Source of the DNA: an uncultured Caulobacteraceae bacterium
GTDB lineage: Bacteria; Pseudomonadota; Alphaproteobacteria; Caulobacterales; Aquidulcibacteraceae
DNA: 64,000 nt
Reading direction: 5' to 3'
Assembly: GCA_964443435.1 (NCBI GenBank)
Contig: CAYUCW010000001.1
Coordinates: 11,474-75,473, forward strand
Below, in pieces: positions 702-29,342 of the stretch. Numbering within the stretch: the stretch's first letter is position 1; each line of letters opens with the position of its first letter. Made by a program: the position numbers and the translations under genes. The notes under the pieces were generated by a model that saw nothing but the letters and a program-made list of their open reading frames with translations, was not told the DNA's origin and ran no database searches.

Positions 702-743
702 TTATTTATATTGGCAGAATCGTTTTTGCCTTTATACTTAATT

Positions 744-1493
744 ATGAGTTTTCCATTAAATTTACCTTTATTCGGGCAAAATATTCCAAGTCATAGTATT
801 CTTGAAACATTGTCTTATTTTATTGGGTATCGTTTCTATTTATTCTTAAAGCATAAATGGAAAGATGATTATGGCGACGAAGCACGCCTTAATATTTTTG
901 TTGGCGCAATATTAGGTGCGGCTATAGGGTCTAAACTTTTAGGTTTTTTAGAGCATAAAATTTTATGGAGTTTAGCACTAGAAAATATAATTCATATAAT
1001 GGCTGCAAAAACAATTCTTGGCGGATTAATCGGTGGCACAATTGGGGTTGAAATCGTAAAATTCTTTTGCAAGATCAAAAGATCTAGTGGTGATCTATAT
1101 GTTTTTCCAATAATATTGGGAATTATAATTGGTCGCATCGGCTGTTTCTTGGATGGCGTTAATGATGGAACCTGGGGAAATAAAACAAGCTTTATTATGG
1201 GAATAGATGGTGGTGATGGGGTATTGCGCCATCCAACCCCTCTTTATGAAATTATCTTTTTAAGTTTGCTATTTATAAGTTTGTGGAAAATTAAGCCAAA
1301 AATTAAAACTGAAGGTGATTTGTATAAAATCTTTCTTGGTTCTTATTGTTTTTGGCGATTTTCAATTGAGTTTATAAAGCCTATCGAAACTCATACTATT
1401 TTGAATCTTTCTTTTATCCAGATGGCATCAATACTTATGATTGTATATTATTTTTTTGTGTTTATCATGCGAAGAAAAAGAAGGATAATTTAA
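744..1493 (+). CDS. Prolipoprotein diacylglyceryl transferase (Lgt)-family membrane protein, divergent paralog
   Basis: GRIGCFLDG, RHPTPLYE and YCFWRFSIEFIK correspond to Lgt GRLGNFING, RHPSQLYE and RxxxEFxR; multiple TM segments. ATG 744 preferred over 711. Confidence 0.85.
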   Translation: MSFPLNLPLFGQNIPSHSILETLSYFIGYRFYLFLKHKWKDDYGDEARLNIFVGAILGAAIGSKLLGFLEHKILWSLALENIIHIMAAKTILGGLIGGTIGVEIVKFFCKIKRSSGDLYVFPIILGIIIGRIGCFLDGVNDGTWGNKTSFIMGIDGGDGVLRHPTPLYEIIFLSLLFISLWKIKPKIKTEGDLYKIFLGSYCFWRFSIEFIKPIETHTILNLSFIQMASILMIVYYFFVFIMRRKRRII

Positions 1494-2878
1494 TGCCAGT
1501 TCGTGATTATGTTTTTTATGAATTAACGAATAGCATTTGTCCTGATTGCTTCAAAAAATTAGAAGCAAAAATAATTATACAAGACAATAAAGTATATTTG
1601 GTGAAGCAATGCCCAGATCATGGGAAGTTTAAAGTCCTCATTTCTGATGATGCCGAATATTATAAAAAGACCAGAGATTTCCTTAAGCCTGGTGATATCC
1701 CTATTAAATTTAGTAAAAAAGTTGAACTTGGCTGCCCTTATGATTGTGGGCTCTGCACAGATCATGAACAACATTCATGTGTTTCAATCATAGAACTTAC
1801 CGATAGATGCAATCTTACCTGTCCTGTTTGCTATGCATCTTCTTCACCTTCGAGTGGAAGCCATAGGAAGCTTGAAGAAGTCAAAGCAATGATTGATATT
1901 ATTGTCAAAGCCGAAGGCGAGCCAGACGTAGTGCAATTGTCAGGAGGAGAACCAACGCTTCATCCAGATTTTTTTGAAATTCTCGATTATTGCAAAACAA
2001 AGCCTATTCGCCATTTAATGATTAATACAAATGGCTATAGAATTGCCAATGAGCCAGATTTTGTAAAAAGACTTAGCATGTATATGCCATCTTTGGAAAT
2101 TTATCTTCAATTTGATAGTTTTGAAAAAGAAACTCTAATTAAATTACGTGGGCAAGATGTTACAATTTGGCGTGAAAATGCGATTAAACATCTTAATCAA
2201 TATAATATTTCTACGACTTTAGTTGTTACTTTACAAAAAGGCCTAAATGACAGTGAAATTGGTAAAATAACTGATTTTGCAAAAGATCAAAAATGCATAA
2301 GAGGGGTAACATTTCAACCAACCCAATACGCAGGTAGAATTGAAAATTTTGATCCTGAACTTGATAGGCTTACATTAAGCGCGGTACGAAATGAAATTTT
2401 AAAACAATCTGAAATTTTTAATGCCGAAGATTTAATTCCTGTTCCATGCCACCCTGATGCAATTATGATGGGCTATGCATTGAAGCTTGGCGATGAAATA
2501 TTGCCACTAACAAGATATTTTAGTCCTGAAGACCTTTTAAGTGCCACTCGAAACACAATAAACTTTGAAACTCTTCCTGAAATTCAATCAAAGCTTTTTG
2601 AATTATTTTCGACCTCTAATTCCCCACAAGATTGCACTGAGAAAATTGCAGAAATTATGTGCTGTTTGCCAAAAATCGAAATAGGGCAGTTAAATTATTC
2701 AAATTTGTTTAGAATTATTATTATGAAATTCTATGATGCTTATGATTTTGATGTGCGCGGTGTTAAAAAATCTTGCGTTCATATTGTGCATAAAGACGGA
2801 CGCATAATTCCTTTTGATACTATGAATTTATTTTATAGAGATCCTAAAGATGAAGCAAAACTTATGGGGGCAAGGTAA
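1493..2878 (+). CDS. Radical SAM protein of the Tes/GDGT-MAS (MJ0619)-like family
   Basis: N-terminal CPDC...CPDHG, GCPYDCGLCTDH, radical SAM CNLTCPVC, SGGEPT, NTNG, YLQFD, C-terminal KKSCVH...DGRIIPF. Confidence 0.85.
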   Translation: MPVRDYVFYELTNSICPDCFKKLEAKIIIQDNKVYLVKQCPDHGKFKVLISDDAEYYKKTRDFLKPGDIPIKFSKKVELGCPYDCGLCTDHEQHSCVSIIELTDRCNLTCPVCYASSSPSSGSHRKLEEVKAMIDIIVKAEGEPDVVQLSGGEPTLHPDFFEILDYCKTKPIRHLMINTNGYRIANEPDFVKRLSMYMPSLEIYLQFDSFEKETLIKLRGQDVTIWRENAIKHLNQYNISTTLVVTLQKGLNDSEIGKITDFAKDQKCIRGVTFQPTQYAGRIENFDPELDRLTLSAVRNEILKQSEIFNAEDLIPVPCHPDAIMMGYALKLGDEILPLTRYFSPEDLLSATRNTINFETLPEIQSKLFELFSTSNSPQDCTEKIAEIMCCLPKIEIGQLNYSNLFRIIIMKFYDAYDFDVRGVKKSCVHIVHKDGRIIPFDTMNLFYRDPKDEAKLMGAR

Positions 2879-3147
2879 TGGATGAGCCAATTAAAAAGTT
2901 TAATTATTTACAATTGAGCGGTATCTATCTTATTATTATAGTTATTGCTAATTTTATTGGAGGTTTAGGGTTAGCCGCTTTTATTCAATTACCTGTAATT
3001 TTAATAACTTTTTTTGTCGCGATCGTGTTAAGTTTTAGTAAACCATTTGATAAACAATACTGGATTTTATTTGGTATAGCTATATTAATAAGTGGGCCAA
3101 GTTGCTTTTTATTAGGAATGTTTAATTTGGCATATAGGTATTATTAA
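2878..3147 (+). CDS. Small membrane protein (about 3 TM), paralog of the next gene
   Basis: Hydrophobic 89 aa; TAATG overlap with the rSAM stop; WILFGIAILISGPSCF motif. Confidence 0.75.
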   Translation: MDEPIKKFNYLQLSGIYLIIIVIANFIGGLGLAAFIQLPVILITFFVAIVLSFSKPFDKQYWILFGIAILISGPSCFLLGMFNLAYRYY

Positions 3148-3470
3148 TGGGTACAATAACACCAAAAAAACTATATATTGGCTTCAGCGCTATATATGTA
3201 ATTATTATACTTATTTTTCATTTATACTTCCGTGATGACCATTTAGGTTTACTAGTAGTATTTGCAGCTCAATTCACTTTTATAGTTCTTGTATTTGCAA
3301 TTGCAATTATTGCGAGCTTAACTTTATTTCTAATAAAACCTGAATTAATAAAACATTTCTGGATATTTTTTGGTCTTACTGTACTTTTAAGCGGTGCTCA
3401 GTGTTTTTATATTTTTGCAATAGAAGCAATTATAACAAATAATGAGTTGTATATTTTGAACGGAAAATAA
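3147..3470 (+). CDS. Small membrane protein (about 3 TM), paralog of the previous gene
   Basis: Hydrophobic 107 aa; TAATG overlap; WIFFGLTVLLSGAQCF motif. Confidence 0.75.
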   Translation: MGTITPKKLYIGFSAIYVIIILIFHLYFRDDHLGLLVVFAAQFTFIVLVFAIAIIASLTLFLIKPELIKHFWIFFGLTVLLSGAQCFYIFAIEAIITNNELYILNGK

Positions 3471-3486: not shown

Positions 3487-4065
3487 CTAAATAACCGTAA
3501 TCAACCAAAAGCCAAAAACAATAAAGAAAGCCACTGCGCCAGTAACCCAATAAAGCTGTTTTTCAATAAATGGCTCTATGCTAGGGCCAAATTTCTGTGC
3601 AAGCCATGCAACACCAAAAAATCTTGCACCTCTTGTAATTGCACATGACATTACAAAAACAAAGAAATTGAATTTCGTCATTCCTGAAAGAATGGTCACA
3701 AGCTTAAAAGGAATTGGCGTAAGGCCTTTAATAAGAATTACTAAAGCACCATATTTTTGGAATTGCTCATTGAAATGAACCATTTTTTCGGCATAGCCAT
3801 AGAATTCCATTAATGGCTTTCCTACTGTATCCATCAAGAATAAACCAATAAAATAGCCAAAAATACCACCTAACACTGAGGCAATTGTTGCAATTAAAGC
3901 GGTTTTCCACCAATTTTTTGGATTTGTTGCCGCCATTGGTAAAATCATAACGTCGGGCGGAATTGGGAAGAAAGAAGCTTCGGCAAAAGAAACGATGGCA
4001 AGTGCTGGATTAGCTTTTTCAGATGCAGCAAGAGTTCTAAGTTTTAAATATAAGTTTTTAAGCAT
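3487..4065 (-). CDS. YqaA/DedA (VTT domain) membrane protein
   Basis: SFAEASFFPIPPDVM, ATIASVLGGIFGY, TPIPFKL. Start taken at ATG 4065. Confidence 0.9.
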   Translation of the reverse strand: MLKNLYLKLRTLAASEKANPALAIVSFAEASFFPIPPDVMILPMAATNPKNWWKTALIATIASVLGGIFGYFIGLFLMDTVGKPLMEFYGYAEKMVHFNEQFQKYGALVILIKGLTPIPFKLVTILSGMTKFNFFVFVMSCAITRGARFFGVAWLAQKFGPSIEPFIEKQLYWVTGAVAFFIVFGFWLITVI

Positions 4066-4197
4066 GAACCCAAATAACCATTTTATGATAAATAATAAAT
4101 TAAGAAATGCATGAAACCTCAATTATTTTGCAAAATAATATGATTTTGCTTGTAAATAATCAATTTTCGTGTCTAATTTAACTATGGAGGGGCTATT

Positions 4198-4611
4198 ATG
4201 AAATTATTTGGTGTAAAATTAGTACCGATTTTAGTTGCGGCGCTTGCGGCATATATCGTTGGAATGGTTATTTATGGGTTGTTATTTTCGGCGCAATGGA
4301 TGGCCTGGAGTGGTAAAACCGCGGAGTCTTTCAAAGGGCTTGAATGGCGAATGGCGCTTAGTCCGATTATGCCACTTGTACTATCTTTTGGCATAGCTAA
4401 AGCAATTAATGCCCGAAATATAGTAAATTGGATATCTGGTCTAAAACTAGGCGTTTTTATCGGCCTATTTTTAACAATTTCGACAAGACTTTATACTTTT
4501 GTCTATGGTACAGAGCCAATAGAATTATACCTTCTTGATAGTGTTCATTTTATATTGATTAGTGCTGTATGTGGTGCAATTCTTGCTAAAATGAAAGTCG
4601 GTGAAGTTTAA
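4198..4611 (+). CDS. DUF1761-like membrane protein
   Basis: 4 TM; N-terminal AALAAYIVGMVIYGLLFSAQWM pattern. Confidence 0.65.
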   Translation: MKLFGVKLVPILVAALAAYIVGMVIYGLLFSAQWMAWSGKTAESFKGLEWRMALSPIMPLVLSFGIAKAINARNIVNWISGLKLGVFIGLFLTISTRLYTFVYGTEPIELYLLDSVHFILISAVCGAILAKMKVGEV

Positions 4612-4686
4612 ACTGCTATTTCAAGAAAACTAACTTGGAATTTTCGGATAATAATGTAAGCCAATTATTATAAATTGGTTTTTAAA

Positions 4687-5472
4687 ATGCGTATTTTACT
4701 TGTAAATGATGATGGAATTAATGCTGAAGGCTTTGCGGTTCTCGAGAAAATTGCAAATGCACTAAGTGATGATGTTTGGGCGGTTGCGCCCGATAAAGAA
4801 AGATCGGCGGTTTCACGCGCAATAACTTTGCATGATCCCATTAAAGTAAAGCAATTAGGACCAAAAAGATTTGCATGCTCTGGTACCCCAACTGATTGCG
4901 TTATTATTGGTGTACTTGACATTCTAAAAGATAAAAAGCCAGATTTAATTTTATCGGGGGTTAATCGTGGGCAAAACTTGGCGGAAGATGTCACGGTTTC
5001 TGGAACGGTTGCGGGCGCAGTGCAAGGTATGCAAATGGGCATTAAATCAATCGCGCTTTCGCAAACTATTGATTTTTCTGACTATGGCCCCGCTTGTTTT
5101 GAAGTTGCAGAAAAATATAGCGTCGAGATTATAAAAAAGCTTTTAAATGCTTTTTGGCCGCCAACAATTGTTATGAATGTTAATTTCCCAATGAAAATTT
5201 GTATGAAAAACATTGATGAAGCAATCATAGAAGCAACTTCACAAGGTGCACGCGAAGAAGATGTTAATCATGTTCACAAGCGTGAAGATTTGCGCGGAAG
5301 TGAATATTATTGGCTTGGCTATAATCAACAAGAACATTTACCGCCATTAGGTACGGATTTACGCGCGGTTATGGATGGTAATATTTCTATAACTCCATTG
5401 CATATTGATTTAACTTCACGAAGCGTATTAAATGAGCTTGCAAAAGATTTTGTAACAAAATTGGAAAATTAA
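4687..5472 (+). CDS. surE: 5'/3'-nucleotidase SurE
   Basis: MRILLVNDDGINAEG, GTPTDCV, SGVNRGQN, SGTVAGA. Confidence 0.97.
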   Translation: MRILLVNDDGINAEGFAVLEKIANALSDDVWAVAPDKERSAVSRAITLHDPIKVKQLGPKRFACSGTPTDCVIIGVLDILKDKKPDLILSGVNRGQNLAEDVTVSGTVAGAVQGMQMGIKSIALSQTIDFSDYGPACFEVAEKYSVEIIKKLLNAFWPPTIVMNVNFPMKICMKNIDEAIIEATSQGAREEDVNHVHKREDLRGSEYYWLGYNQQEHLPPLGTDLRAVMDGNISITPLHIDLTSRSVLNELAKDFVTKLEN

Positions 5473-6107
5473 TGGATTCAACGGCTTCGCGCGCAAAATT
5501 AATTCTGGCATTAAGGCAACAGGGCATAAGAGACCCAAGAGTGCTTACAGTGCTAGAAACAGTGCCGCGTGAACTATTTGTTGCCCCCGAATTTGCACCG
5601 CGCGCTTGGGATAATTCGGCGCTTCCTATAAGTTTTGGACAAACAATTTCACAGCCCTTTGTGGTTGGTGCTATGACTGCGGCACTTGAACTTTCAGGTA
5701 ATGAATTTGTCTTAGAAATTGGAACTGGTTCAGGTTATCAAACCGCAATTCTTTCAAAGCTTGCGCGGCGTGTTTTCACGATTGAGCGCTATCGTCCTTT
5801 AATGAAAGAAGCGCAAAAACGCTTTGAAGCTTTGGGGCTAACTAATATTGTTGCAAAATGTGATGATGGTGCAAATGGCTGGGTAGAGCAGGGGAAGTTT
5901 GACGCAATAATCGCAACTTGTGCTTTTGCCAATCGCCCAGATAGTTTGCTTGCGCAATTAAAAATTGGTGGCCGATTTATTGTACCAGTTGGTCAAGGAA
6001 GCGTGCAAGAGCTTTTAAGATATAGACTACGCGAAGATGGCGTATTCGAAGAAGAAGCTTTGATGGATGTGCGTTTTGTGCCGCAACTTCCTGGGATATC
6101 TGGATAA
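5472..6107 (+). CDS. pcm: Protein-L-isoaspartate O-methyltransferase
   Basis: GQTISQP, VLEIGTGSGYQTAILS; follows surE with a TAATG overlap. Confidence 0.97.
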   Translation: MDSTASRAKLILALRQQGIRDPRVLTVLETVPRELFVAPEFAPRAWDNSALPISFGQTISQPFVVGAMTAALELSGNEFVLEIGTGSGYQTAILSKLARRVFTIERYRPLMKEAQKRFEALGLTNIVAKCDDGANGWVEQGKFDAIIATCAFANRPDSLLAQLKIGGRFIVPVGQGSVQELLRYRLREDGVFEEEALMDVRFVPQLPGISG

Positions 6108-6147
6108 TATTAAGCACCTATAAACCATGTTTTGCCATAATTAGATT

Positions 6148-7305
6148 ATGCGAAATAAAAGAATTATTTTTGGCTTATTTGTTTTCACCCAATTATTATG
6201 TGTGAATGGCTTTGCGCAAACAAAGTTAAATGAAGTTGCCCCGGCTGGGACTGCGAAATTTGATCCGAAAAACCCGCCAACTGAAACTATTGTTAAAAAC
6301 CGTGAAACACTTTTCGATATTGCAGAAAGAACACGCTCACCGCTTGAGGGGATAATCGAAGAAAATAATCTTTCGCCGCCCTATAGCTTGGTAGCAGGGC
6401 AGAAAATCAAGCTTCCTCCTCTAAAGGTTCATATTGTTCAAAAAGGTGAAAAGCTTGAAACCATTGCCGCAAGATATAGTATAAATCTTCGTTCGCTTGC
6501 CGTTTTTAATAATCTTAGTCAACCTTATAATATAAAAAGAGGCCAAAAAATTATAATGCCTGCAATGGTGCAGGATAGCTTAACTGGTAAAGAAGCTATT
6601 GACCTCATAAGTTTGATTACTGGGGAAATTAATAGCGGTAAAAAAGTATCTGGCAATAATGGCGGTGCGATTTCAATCCGTAGAGATAATACAATACCGC
6701 AATTACCAAAGGGGTTTAGCGGTATAGATTCCGTGCCTATCGCGCAGCCGGTTAATCCGGTTCCAAAACCGAAATCTAATGTGCCCAATACTGCCATTAA
6801 TTCACCAAAGCCTAATATTGCAACCAAGCCAAAAGCAATAAGTACCGAAGCTAATACTAATCAGATAAATCCACCAAAAACTAATGTAAATCCAACGCCA
6901 AATAATGCGATTATTAATGTTGTGAATGGTCGTTTTTCTTGGCCTATTAAGGGAAATATCCTTGAAACTTTTGGCGAAAAGCGCAATTTTGTTAAAAATG
7001 ACGGAATTGATATTGCTGCGCCATTAAATACGCCATTCAAAGCTACTGCCGATGGGGAAGTTGCCTTTGTTTCAGATAAGATTACGGGATATGGCTGGCT
7101 TGTTTTGATAAAGCACAAGGATGGATTTCTAAGCACTTACGCTTATGCCAATAAAATTATTGTTAAAGAAGGTGATATAGTCAAAAAAGGTCAAGAAATT
7201 GGCTTAATTGGGCAAACTGGCCGTGCCACAAGCCCAAGGCTTCACTTTCAAATTCGTAATGGACTTAGTCCAATTGATCCTACGCCACATTTAAATAGAG
7301 GCTAA
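6148..7305 (+). CDS. LysM + M23 peptidase-domain protein (NlpD/DipM-like)
   Basis: Signal peptide, two LysM repeats, Pro/Asn-rich linker, C-terminal WPIKG..NDGIDI..LHFQIR; surE-pcm-nlpD synteny. Confidence 0.9.
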   Translation: MRNKRIIFGLFVFTQLLCVNGFAQTKLNEVAPAGTAKFDPKNPPTETIVKNRETLFDIAERTRSPLEGIIEENNLSPPYSLVAGQKIKLPPLKVHIVQKGEKLETIAARYSINLRSLAVFNNLSQPYNIKRGQKIIMPAMVQDSLTGKEAIDLISLITGEINSGKKVSGNNGGAISIRRDNTIPQLPKGFSGIDSVPIAQPVNPVPKPKSNVPNTAINSPKPNIATKPKAISTEANTNQINPPKTNVNPTPNNAIINVVNGRFSWPIKGNILETFGEKRNFVKNDGIDIAAPLNTPFKATADGEVAFVSDKITGYGWLVLIKHKDGFLSTYAYANKIIVKEGDIVKKGQEIGLIGQTGRATSPRLHFQIRNGLSPIDPTPHLNRG

Positions 7306-7306
7306 A

Positions 7307-7774
7307 ATGAAAAATCTTATTATTATTTCCCTTATTGGGCTTTCATTAGCTGCTTGTTCAAAATCAGAAGAAACAAATTCGGGTGAGGCTTTAAAAATTG
7401 AAGCAATGCAGGATAAAAAAGAACCTGAAAACAAAGTCGTTCAAAAGGCTTTTGCCAAGAATTTATTGATTGGAAATTGGGCACAAACCAGTGAAAAATG
7501 TAATTCAAGCGAAGCCATGAGTTTTAAGTCTAATGGCGAATATGACACTTCTGAAATTACTGGAAATTGGTCATTAAAATCCAATATTATAAATGTTAAA
7601 TTACCAAGCGAAGAAGAAAGCCTTGGTCAAGCAGAGCTTAATGAAATTGATCTCAAAATCCTTGCTTTAGATGCGAATACGCTAAAACTAAGGGCTGCGG
7701 ATAACGAAAAAATTACTCTTATTCGTTGCACCATAGAGCCAATCGAACAAGAAGACGAAATTTTGGCAAAATAA
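7307..7774 (+). CDS. Hypothetical lipoprotein
   Basis: Signal peptide with lipobox LAAC. Confidence 0.7.
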   Translation: MKNLIIISLIGLSLAACSKSEETNSGEALKIEAMQDKKEPENKVVQKAFAKNLLIGNWAQTSEKCNSSEAMSFKSNGEYDTSEITGNWSLKSNIINVKLPSEEESLGQAELNEIDLKILALDANTLKLRAADNEKITLIRCTIEPIEQEDEILAK

Positions 7775-29251: not shown

Positions 29252-29342
29252 GGAGACGTGGCCGAGAGGCTGAAGGCACTCGTTTGCTAAATGAGCGTAC
29301 TCCAAAAGGGTACCGAGGGTTCGAATCCCTCCGTCTCCGCCA
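29252..29342 (+). tRNA. tRNA-Ser(GCT)
   Basis: Acceptor stem GGAGACG/CGTCTCC, anticodon loop TTGCTAA, long variable arm, GGTTCGAATCC, encoded CCA. Confidence 0.97.

Follow-up and report, generated by a model that had tools for sequence, protein, structure and literature searches.

The 64-kb stretch of DNA analysed here (the window) contains a four-gene operon on the forward strand that ends with two very small membrane proteins. The genes and their junctions are as follows:

744..1493 (+), an Lgt-like integral membrane protein of 249 aa counted from the ATG at 744 (the mechanical ORF starts at TTG 711), a divergent member of the prolipoprotein diacylglyceryl transferase fold in which the invariant family Cys replacing Lgt N146 is TGT 1143-1145.
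1493..2878 (+), a radical SAM (rSAM) enzyme of the Tes/GDGT-MAS (tetraether lipid synthase) clade, 461 aa.
2878..3147 (+), small membrane protein 1, 89 aa with 3 predicted TM helices; shared motif W62-F77 at nt 3061-3108 and a single Cys, C76 (TGC 3103-3105).
3147..3470 (+), small membrane protein 2, 107 aa with 3 TM helices, a paralog of protein 1; shared motif W72-F87 at nt 3360-3407 and a single Cys, C86 (TGT 3402-3404).
1491..1495 (+), a TAATG stop/start overlap between the Lgt-like and rSAM genes; the same overlap occurs at 2876-2880 (rSAM/small 1) and 3145-3149 (small 1/small 2), so all four genes are translationally coupled.

Scans for promoters and terminators gave results no better than those for shuffled sequences.

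A preliminary description had proposed that the two small proteins are diverged tandem paralogs that share WIxFGxxxLxSGxxCF and each carry one Cys, and this observation was confirmed: the ORFs, peptides, motif and single Cys residues are exactly as described. BLASTP gave 37% identity with an E-value of 1e-9. The paralogy is more than composition, since the Smith-Waterman score of 109 compares with 35.6 +/- 6.4 for full shuffles (z 11.4, 0/2000) and 46.4 +/- 9.3 for shuffles within 8-residue windows that keep the hydropathy profile (z 6.7, 0/2000). The earlier placement of the Cys at the end of the last hydrophobic helix needs a slight correction, as 13 and 21 more residues follow it, the first ten or so of which are hydrophobic. 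An AF2 model of protein 2 (helices 6-27, 32-60 and 65-106) puts the Cys inside a long third helix (H65-106, pLDDT 79). The earlier remark that SGxxC is not a canonical lipobox was correct.

We next examined the two enzymes. The Lgt-like protein matches Pfam LGT (PF01790) at 2.4e-23 but scores far below equivalog level, with 46.8 bits against a cut-off of 118.9 for TIGR00544 and 47.4 against 334 for NF000778. A phmmer search of PDB sequences found nothing, and fold comparison was needed to show the relationship: the AF2 model (pLDDT 93.3) has E. coli Lgt 5AZB as its only significant PDB match (prob 1.0, TM 0.67). Residues whose mutation inactivates E. coli Lgt are Y26, H103, R143, G142, G145 and E151, with N146 and R239 also part of the conserved signature, and R143/R239 are the proposed catalytic centre facing the periplasm (PMC4728403). 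The Lgt-like protein keeps G142, R143, G145, G154, Y235, R239 and E243, but has Y26->H (58/60), H103->V/L, N146->C (59/59) and E151->L/V, and may therefore do different chemistry. It belongs to a separate paralog family and has a much reduced periplasmic head.

The rSAM enzyme is a clear homologue of GDGT-MAS (MJ0619, PDB 7TOL/7TOM), matching 7TOL at E 5.9e-67 over residues 11-454, with the same domain order (rubredoxin-like, [4Fe-4S]N, radical SAM core, C-terminal cluster domain). Pfam assigns Radical_SAM plus Zn_ribbon_HMPTM. It shares with GDGT-MAS the rubredoxin-like CxxC...CxxH, the CPYDCGLC [4Fe-4S]N motif and the CxxxCxxC radical SAM motif, and the metal ligands (C16/C19/C40/H43, C81/C85/C88 plus His, and C106/C110/C113) are invariant in 63 family members. 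The Met439 equivalent is kept in 58/63 sequences, whereas the equivalent of Tyr459, strictly conserved in Tes, is Ile in 60/63. The enzyme also falls below the NCBIfam Tes cut-off (283 bits against 450). The best-scoring NCBIfam model is the TrsS radical SAM (seleno)protein (NF045646), whose function is not described in the literature consulted; the score of 324 bits is below the cut-off of 490, and no selenocysteine is involved here.

To determine whether this gene arrangement is conserved, we fetched 64 related loci with the rSAM, 7 with the Lgt-like protein and 12 with a small protein, and found the same module in at least seven phyla. Of the 62 loci fetched with the rSAM that have a full-length rSAM ORF, 58 have the Lgt-like gene directly upstream and about 55 have one or more small hydrophobic ORFs adjacent. 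In agreement, 7 of 7 places fetched with Lgt-like homologues show Lgt-like, then rSAM, then 1-2 small ORFs, all with the Cys motif. No other gene is conserved across phyla. There were exceptions: four loci (L014, L016, L042 and L046 in our numbering of the fetched loci) have both enzymes but no small ORF within 6 kb, and two (L010, L011) have rSAM plus small ORF but no Lgt-like gene nearby. Extra genes in the loci lacking the Lgt-like gene (TerD-DnaJ, RlmN-like, an epimerase, SAM synthetase) gave no functional clue. An apparent Lgt-rSAM fusion in another locus, L062, results from one missing A in an A-run, is probably an error, and was not used as evidence of physical coupling.

The preliminary description had named two findings that would count against its interpretation, a Cys not conserved in homologues and homologues occurring independently of the enzyme genes, and neither was observed. 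A profile iterated from the two window proteins converged on 66 of 4570 background ORFs, all of which lie directly beside the enzyme pair, and within the 64-kb window it hits only the two ORFs. In a metagenome scan with a small-protein alignment, 11 of 11 testable loci have the rSAM directly upstream. Database-wide searches with the small proteins, however, are too insensitive to prove that family members never occur alone, because the family is too short and too divergent for database-wide E-values. A word-index search with protein 1 found only itself, an exhaustive HMMER search of 1.84 billion representatives with the two-paralog profile found only the two proteins, and a 52-sequence family profile against 5.8 billion proteins gave only 6 hits at E<=1e-3, all already in our loci or the window. 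The alphaproteobacterial alignment had no stretch conserved enough to scan metagenomes with, and a scan with protein 2 alone found nothing. Pfam and NCBIfam have no family for 12 small proteins from 6 phyla.

The family members have 2-3 TM helices and 58-127 aa, and occur in 1-4 copies per locus. The Cys column is the most conserved in the family, being Cys in 64/68 sequences against 0.8% Cys elsewhere in these proteins. All 51 loci with members retain a Cys-bearing copy, and Cys-less copies occur only in multi-copy loci. In a 52-sequence alignment, with a mean column identity of 18%, it is the only near-invariant column besides Met1; the next most conserved columns after the Cys are the two Leu just upstream. 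The distance from the last K/R to the Cys has a median of 18 aa, and small residues occupy -2/-1 (P/S/A/T/G, then A/T/S). This is lipoprotein-signal-like geometry, but only 3 of 74 members fit the lipobox [LVI][ASTVI][GAS]C (the window proteins have ISGPSC and LSGAQC), and only 0-33 residues (median 10) follow the Cys.

Comparison with canonical prolipoproteins, the substrates of Lgt and Lsp, showed further differences. As in prolipoproteins, a basic segment is followed by a hydrophobic helix, small residues and a Cys at outer-leaflet level. However, the Cys-bearing helix is the last of 2-3 TM helices rather than an N-terminal signal peptide (the one exception is locus L054, where the Cys is near the N-terminus), there is no mature domain after the Cys, the motif is LLx[small][small]C[F/G]G, and the putative substrates are encoded in the same operon as the enzyme. 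RiPP precursor peptides with rSAM maturases (e.g. the sactipeptide pairs SkfA/SkfB and SboA/AlbA) are likewise encoded by short, fast-evolving, sometimes tandemly duplicated genes next to an rSAM gene, with a Cys as the conserved site. The small proteins here are instead polytopic membrane proteins, their rSAM belongs to a lipid-modifying clade with no SPASM, twitch or peptide-recognition (RRE) domain detected by Pfam at E<=1, and no protease or exporter is present. Therefore, 'precursor-peptide-like', as first suggested, fits only loosely.

Taken together, the earlier interpretation of the small proteins as dedicated substrates, or accessory or immunity subunits, of the Lgt-rSAM pair is partly supported: a dedicated partnership is well supported, the data do not decide between substrates and accessory subunits, and an immunity role has no support. 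We tentatively favour the view that they are acceptors S-lipidated by the Lgt-like enzyme, with the rSAM remodelling the lipid tails. The sequence data establish that the module is conserved, that the proteins form one homologous family, and that the single Cys is its only near-invariant residue, lying about 18 residues after a positively charged loop. By the positive-inside rule this loop is cytoplasmic, placing the Cys at outer-leaflet level, where the Lgt catalytic centre (R143/R239, both retained here) works. The rest is inferred, without biochemical evidence: that the last helix acts as an internal, uncleaved or minimally tailed 'signal peptide plus lipobox-like' element, that the Lgt-like enzyme transfers a glycerolipid moiety to the Cys thiol, and that the cytoplasmic Tes-like rSAM acts on lipid hydrocarbon tail ends (C-C coupling or related radical chemistry). 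The rSAM would act either on the donor lipid or on the lipid attached to the protein, giving a lipid-protein conjugate not made by the housekeeping lipoprotein pathway. Several points count against this view: the motif is not a lipobox, the Lgt-like enzyme lacks residues indispensable in E. coli Lgt, some loci lack a small ORF or the Lgt-like gene, and the rSAM is cytoplasmic while the Cys is at outer-leaflet level, so any rSAM link to the Cys must be indirect, via lipid tails. In this view, the tandem paralogs in the window are alternative or paired acceptors. Consistent with substrate-like evolution, identity between related loci falls in the order rSAM > Lgt-like > small protein (90/67/44, 96/90/71 and 81/56/29%), and copy number varies.

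A bolder and, on present evidence, unlikely version of this model is a new kind of bacterial protein lipidation. Here, a dedicated Lgt paralog, with a His/Cys pair replacing Y26/N146, would attach a glycerolipid to the single Cys of the operon-encoded mini-proteins, and the Tes-like rSAM would then C-C couple the lipid's tail end to another lipid or to a second lipidated mini-protein. The product would be a protein-tethered membrane-spanning or cross-linked lipid, in bacteria from at least seven phyla that are not known to make membrane-spanning lipids.

Hundreds of bacterial Tes homologues have been reported, but their function is unverified and has been discussed only in terms of brGDGT biomarker lipids (PMC8941075). 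Our analysis shows that one large bacterial clade of them is locked to an Lgt paralog and to Cys-bearing mini-proteins, across Alphaproteobacteria, Bacillota, Bacteroidota, Planctomycetota, Cyanobacteriota/Sericytochromatia, Omnitrophota and Acidobacteriota. This points to a protein-linked lipid product rather than a bulk membrane lipid, and warns against reading every bacterial Tes homologue as a brGDGT synthase. The link is not mentioned in the Tes papers or the 2026 review that we read, and literature searches found no paper connecting Tes-like rSAM enzymes with Lgt-like genes or these small proteins. The family of small proteins and the Lgt variant with changed cavity residues, which current annotation names 'hypothetical' and 'prolipoprotein diacylglyceryl transferase', are thereby newly defined, and culturable hosts (Neobacillus, Paenibacillus, Asticcacaulis, Tenacibaculum, Mucilaginibacter) make the system directly testable.

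Other explanations were considered. The strongest, although we regard it as less likely, is that the small proteins are accessory subunits: membrane adaptors that hold the soluble rSAM at the membrane or at the Lgt-like enzyme through their basic cytoplasmic loop, or that shape a lipid-access site. The Cys would then have a structural, redox or metal-binding role, for example pairing with the invariant Cys/His of the Lgt-like cavity. In support, the rSAM and small ORF are tightly and often translationally coupled even where no Lgt-like gene is nearby (L010, L011), the basic loop is conserved in character, the Lgt-like family has an invariant Cys (at the N146 position) and His (at the Y26 position) at the same membrane level, and some loci work without any adjacent small ORF. 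However, a stoichiometric subunit would normally keep more than one residue, and the small proteins diverge far faster than either enzyme. The variation in copy number, with Cys-less copies tolerated only beside Cys-bearing ones, is also more typical of substrates.

Alternatively, but improbably, the rSAM could act directly on the small protein before or during membrane insertion, coupling the Cys sulfur to a carbon radical on either a lipid tail end or a side chain such as the conserved Leu at -5/-6, with the Lgt-like enzyme acting before or after this step. This would parallel thioether formation in sactipeptides and the S-C intermediate of GDGT-MAS, which forms an S-C bond between the lipid terminal carbon and a cluster sulfide and has an open or labile coordination site at [4Fe-4S]C (PMC9433317). 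Retention of the Met439 equivalent, the conserved Leu columns and the rSAM and small ORF being the tightest pair in the module are in agreement. In contrast, no peptide-recognition domain was detected, the closest solved relative of the enzyme binds lipids, the Cys is about 18 residues from the cytoplasmic face, and this reading leaves the near-constant Lgt-like partner unexplained.

It is less likely still that the proteins are precursors of exported mini-lipopeptides, in which the first one or two helices plus TM3 would act as a leader and, after lipidation, a signal-peptidase-II-like cut before the Cys would release a lipidated peptide of 4-34 residues. The layout is signal-peptide-like (a basic n-region, a hydrophobic h-region, small residues at -2/-1, then Cys), the tails can be very short, for example CGSMVG and CNSV in Flavobacteriaceae, and the tail is well conserved within Bacillota (CFGI[IL]ISNLGG). 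However, no peptidase or exporter gene is conserved in the module, the -3 to -1 residues rarely fit the Lsp/lipobox rule, and the tails are hydrophobic and would stay in the membrane. Finally, small hydrophobic immunity proteins are common next to peptide-modifying rSAM enzymes, but an immunity role or chance hydrophobic ORFs are very unlikely here, since homology across phyla and a fixed position exclude chance, the loci showed no toxin or bacteriocin precursor and no transporter, PADLOC gave only generic viperin-like rSAM similarity (and a defence system was therefore rejected), and a single invariant Cys is not a feature of known immunity proteins.

To establish what lies at this locus, we first examined the gene order on the + strand, where four genes follow in a row after the 3′ end of serS, and a gene converges from the other strand 17 bases downstream:
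711-1493 (+), Lgt-like gene (mechanical ORF; the likely start is ATG 744, because homologues begin M-x-F-P, giving 744-1493)
1493-2878 (+), radical SAM (rSAM) gene
2878-3147 (+), small ORF 1 (89 aa)
3147-3470 (+), small ORF 2 (107 aa)
3487-4122 (-), convergent gene for a DedA/VTT-domain membrane protein

All three junctions between the four genes are TAATG one-base stop/start overlaps, each preceded by a purine-rich stretch, and the four genes therefore look translationally coupled. The preliminary description of two tandem small membrane proteins as diverged paralogs was confirmed: the peptides it gave are exact, the motif WIxFGxxxLxSGxxCF is present in both proteins, and each protein has one Cys (C76 and C86). 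The paralogy itself is clear, with BLASTP giving 37% identity over 78 columns (E 1e-9). The local alignment score of 109 was never reached in 2000 full shuffles (mean 35.6, sd 6.4), nor in 2000 shuffles restricted to 8-residue windows, which keep the hydropathy profile (mean 46.4, sd 9.3).

We next examined the neighbours of the small ORFs. The upstream membrane protein hits Pfam LGT (2.4e-23) but is far below the NCBIfam Lgt equivalog cut-offs. Its AF2 model (pLDDT 93.3) matches only E. coli Lgt 5AZB in the PDB (prob 1.0, TM 0.67). Alignment with E. coli Lgt and 59 family members showed that G142, R143, G145, G154, Y235, R239 and E243 (as D/E) are kept. In contrast, Y26 is His in 58/60, H103 is Val/Leu, N146 is Cys in 59/59 (codon 1143-1145 in the window) and E151 is Leu/Val, and the periplasmic head is much shorter. 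The His and Cys are also invariant in 30 further homologues. In E. coli, Y26, H103, R143, G142, G145 and E151 mutants are inactive, and R143/R239 form the proposed catalytic centre facing the periplasm (PMC4728403). Two polar residues of the E. coli Lgt central cavity, Y26 and N146, are replaced in concert in this family, and the resulting His/Cys pair at outer-leaflet level may signal thiol-based chemistry different from canonical Lgt.

The rSAM protein is a clear homologue of the tetraether lipid synthase GDGT-MAS (7TOL, E 5.9e-67). The rubredoxin-like ligands, the CPYDCGLC motif of the N-terminal [4Fe-4S] cluster and the CxxxCxxC motif are invariant. The equivalent of the labile Met439 is kept in 58/63 sequences, but the Tyr459 that is strictly conserved in archaea is Ile in 60/63. 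The protein scores below the NCBIfam cut-offs of both TrsS (324 vs 490) and Tes (283 vs 450) and is therefore a separate bacterial clade of the Tes superfamily.

Direct searches with the small proteins did not reveal relatives: a word-index search returned only the query, and an exhaustive search of 1.84 billion representatives with the two-paralog profile returned only the two proteins. Therefore, we approached the question through the enzymes. A scan of one genome per species with the rSAM gave 64 close loci (numbered L001-L064 here), from Alphaproteobacteria (Hyphomonadaceae, Asticcacaulis, Phycosocius), Bacillota (Neobacillus, Paenibacillus, Brevibacillus, Aeribacillus, Shimazuella and others), Bacteroidota, Planctomycetota, Cyanobacteriota/Sericytochromatia, Omnitrophota, Acidobacteriota and a ‘Deltaproteobacteria’ MAG. 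In 58 of the 62 loci with a full-length rSAM ORF, the Lgt-like gene lies directly upstream. In about 55 loci, one to four hydrophobic ORFs of roughly 60-125 aa lie directly downstream, although in the Omnitrophota MAG they lie upstream. No other gene is conserved across phyla. In Neobacillus pocheonensis KCTC 13943 (L062:5230-7416), the Lgt-like and rSAM genes read as one 728-aa ORF. However, alignment with loci L027 and L055 shows one A missing from an A-run at the junction, so this is probably a sequencing error rather than a true fusion.

The arrangement also has exceptions. Four loci (L014, L016, L042 and L046, from Ectobacillus, two Microcoleaceae MAGs and Gottfriedia; rSAM at about 6001-7400 or 1063-2517) have the Lgt-like and rSAM genes but no recognisable small ORF within the fetched flanks, even at 30 aa and relaxed thresholds. 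Conversely, two Sericytochromatia/Cyanobacteriota MAGs (L010:6001-8470 and L011:6001-8465) have the rSAM plus a Cys-bearing small ORF but no Lgt-like gene within 6 kb, and a TerD-DnaJ fusion gene follows instead.

To test whether the small ORFs form one family, a profile search started from the two window proteins was iterated against all 4570 ORFs of at least 40 aa in these loci. It converged in 8 rounds on 66 ORFs, every one of which is adjacent to the enzyme pair. The final profile hits only the two small ORFs in the whole 64-kb window and does not hit other membrane proteins there. A search with the Lgt-like protein found 504 homologues at E<=1e-10, many from marine Flavobacteriaceae. All 7 genomic places inspected show Lgt-like, then rSAM, then 1-2 small ORFs without Pfam hits, and all of those small ORFs carry the Cys motif. 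Finally, a metagenome scan with a Bacillota-type small-protein alignment returned 12 loci: all 11 that have upstream DNA carry the rSAM directly upstream, and all 6 that are long enough have the Lgt-like gene. Because the small proteins cannot be detected database-wide, these results are only a limited test of whether family members occur independently of the enzymes.

Almost nothing is conserved in the small proteins except architecture and one residue. Mean column identity is 18%, and the only near-invariant columns are the start Met and the Cys. In the 68-sequence alignment, the Cys column is Cys in 64 sequences, against a Cys frequency of 0.8% elsewhere. The four exceptions are extra copies in multi-copy loci, and all 51 loci with members keep at least one Cys-bearing copy. 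Copy number is 1 in 41 loci, 2 in 6, 3 in 1 and 4 in 3. The order is a short polar N-terminus, TM1, TM2, a basic loop (e.g. GKKRLGQG) and then TM3 containing LLx[small][small]-C-[F]-[G]. By the positive-inside rule, the basic loop is predicted to be cytoplasmic and the C-terminus outside. The Cys lies a median of 18 residues after the last Lys/Arg, with a median of 10 residues following it, which puts it at outer-leaflet or interface level, the level of the Lgt active site. Only 3 of 74 members fit the canonical lipobox. Between related loci, identity falls steeply from rSAM to Lgt-like to small protein (90/67/44, 96/90/71 and 81/56/29%).

Bacteroidota carry a shorter 2-TM version of the small protein (58-69 aa), which ends 3-8 residues after the Cys (e.g. 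...IGLG[VIL]CGSM.., or ...II G[YF]S[IV]C.. in Fluviicola) and is often present in two tandem copies (L069:6137-6334, L070:8088-8505, L086:5125-5544, L087:5136-5333, L009:7395-7601 and L021/L022 about 7388-7582). Among these, the flavobacterial versions lack TM1 and end only 3-6 residues after the Cys, e.g. ...IGLGVCGSMVG. In one alphaproteobacterial MAG (L054:7388-7708), the ORF after the rSAM (106 aa) carries its only Cys near the N-terminus, in a signal-peptide-like LLLSGGC context, which is the opposite arrangement from all other loci. The Lgt-like gene there is also the most divergent (E 5e-25).

Together, these results demonstrate that the two ORFs are real paralogous genes, that they belong to a previously unnamed family with no Pfam or NCBIfam model, that this family is a fixed third component of a widespread Lgt-like/Tes-like module, and that its single Cys is the selected residue. 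What the module does is inferred only, from sequence, predicted structure and gene context. Our best reading, which remains tentative, is that the Cys is the acceptor site for a lipid moiety transferred by the Lgt-like enzyme. The Tes-like enzyme, whose solved relative works on the terminal carbons of lipid tails (PMC9433317), would remodel the lipid. This is supported by the signal-peptide-like geometry, the retained R143/R239 centre, the fast, substrate-like evolution with variable copy number, and the tolerance of Cys-less copies only beside Cys-bearing ones. However, the motif is not a lipobox, and several residues essential in E. coli Lgt are replaced. In addition, the rSAM is cytoplasmic while the Cys is on the outer side, four loci have both enzymes and no nearby small ORF, and two have the rSAM and a small ORF but no nearby Lgt-like gene. 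The proposal in the preliminary description that these proteins are dedicated substrates, or accessory or immunity subunits, of the Lgt-rSAM pair is supported in part, with no support for an immunity role.

Of the alternatives, a role as accessory membrane subunits is the strongest, although we consider it less likely than the acceptor model. Direct rSAM substrates forming a Cys thioether are unlikely, and cleaved mini-lipopeptide precursors somewhat more so. Immunity proteins or chance ORFs are very improbable.

In our reading, the system would work most like lipoprotein S-lipidation by Lgt, but the small proteins differ from canonical prolipoproteins in the position of the signal element, the lipobox and the mature domain, and the enzyme does not fulfil the criteria for a housekeeping Lgt. 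Similarly, the rSAM is a Tes/GDGT-MAS relative but not an equivalog. Bacterial Tes homologues have been noted only as candidates for brGDGT synthesis (PMC8941075), a 2026 review of lipid-modifying radical SAM enzymes mentions neither Lgt nor lipoproteins, and our literature searches found nothing on this module. If the lipid cross-linking idea holds, it would be a new class of lipid-protein conjugate.

Near-identical copies of the operon segment searched (711-3470) were found only in metagenome runs, from fresh or drinking water. The surroundings of the operon are ordinary, and besides the convergent DedA/VTT gene they include the following features, with no Rfam family found other than the tRNA:
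4198-4611 (+), DUF1761 protein
4675-7305 (+), surE-pcm-nlpD-like cluster
29252-29342 (+), tRNA-Ser(GCT)
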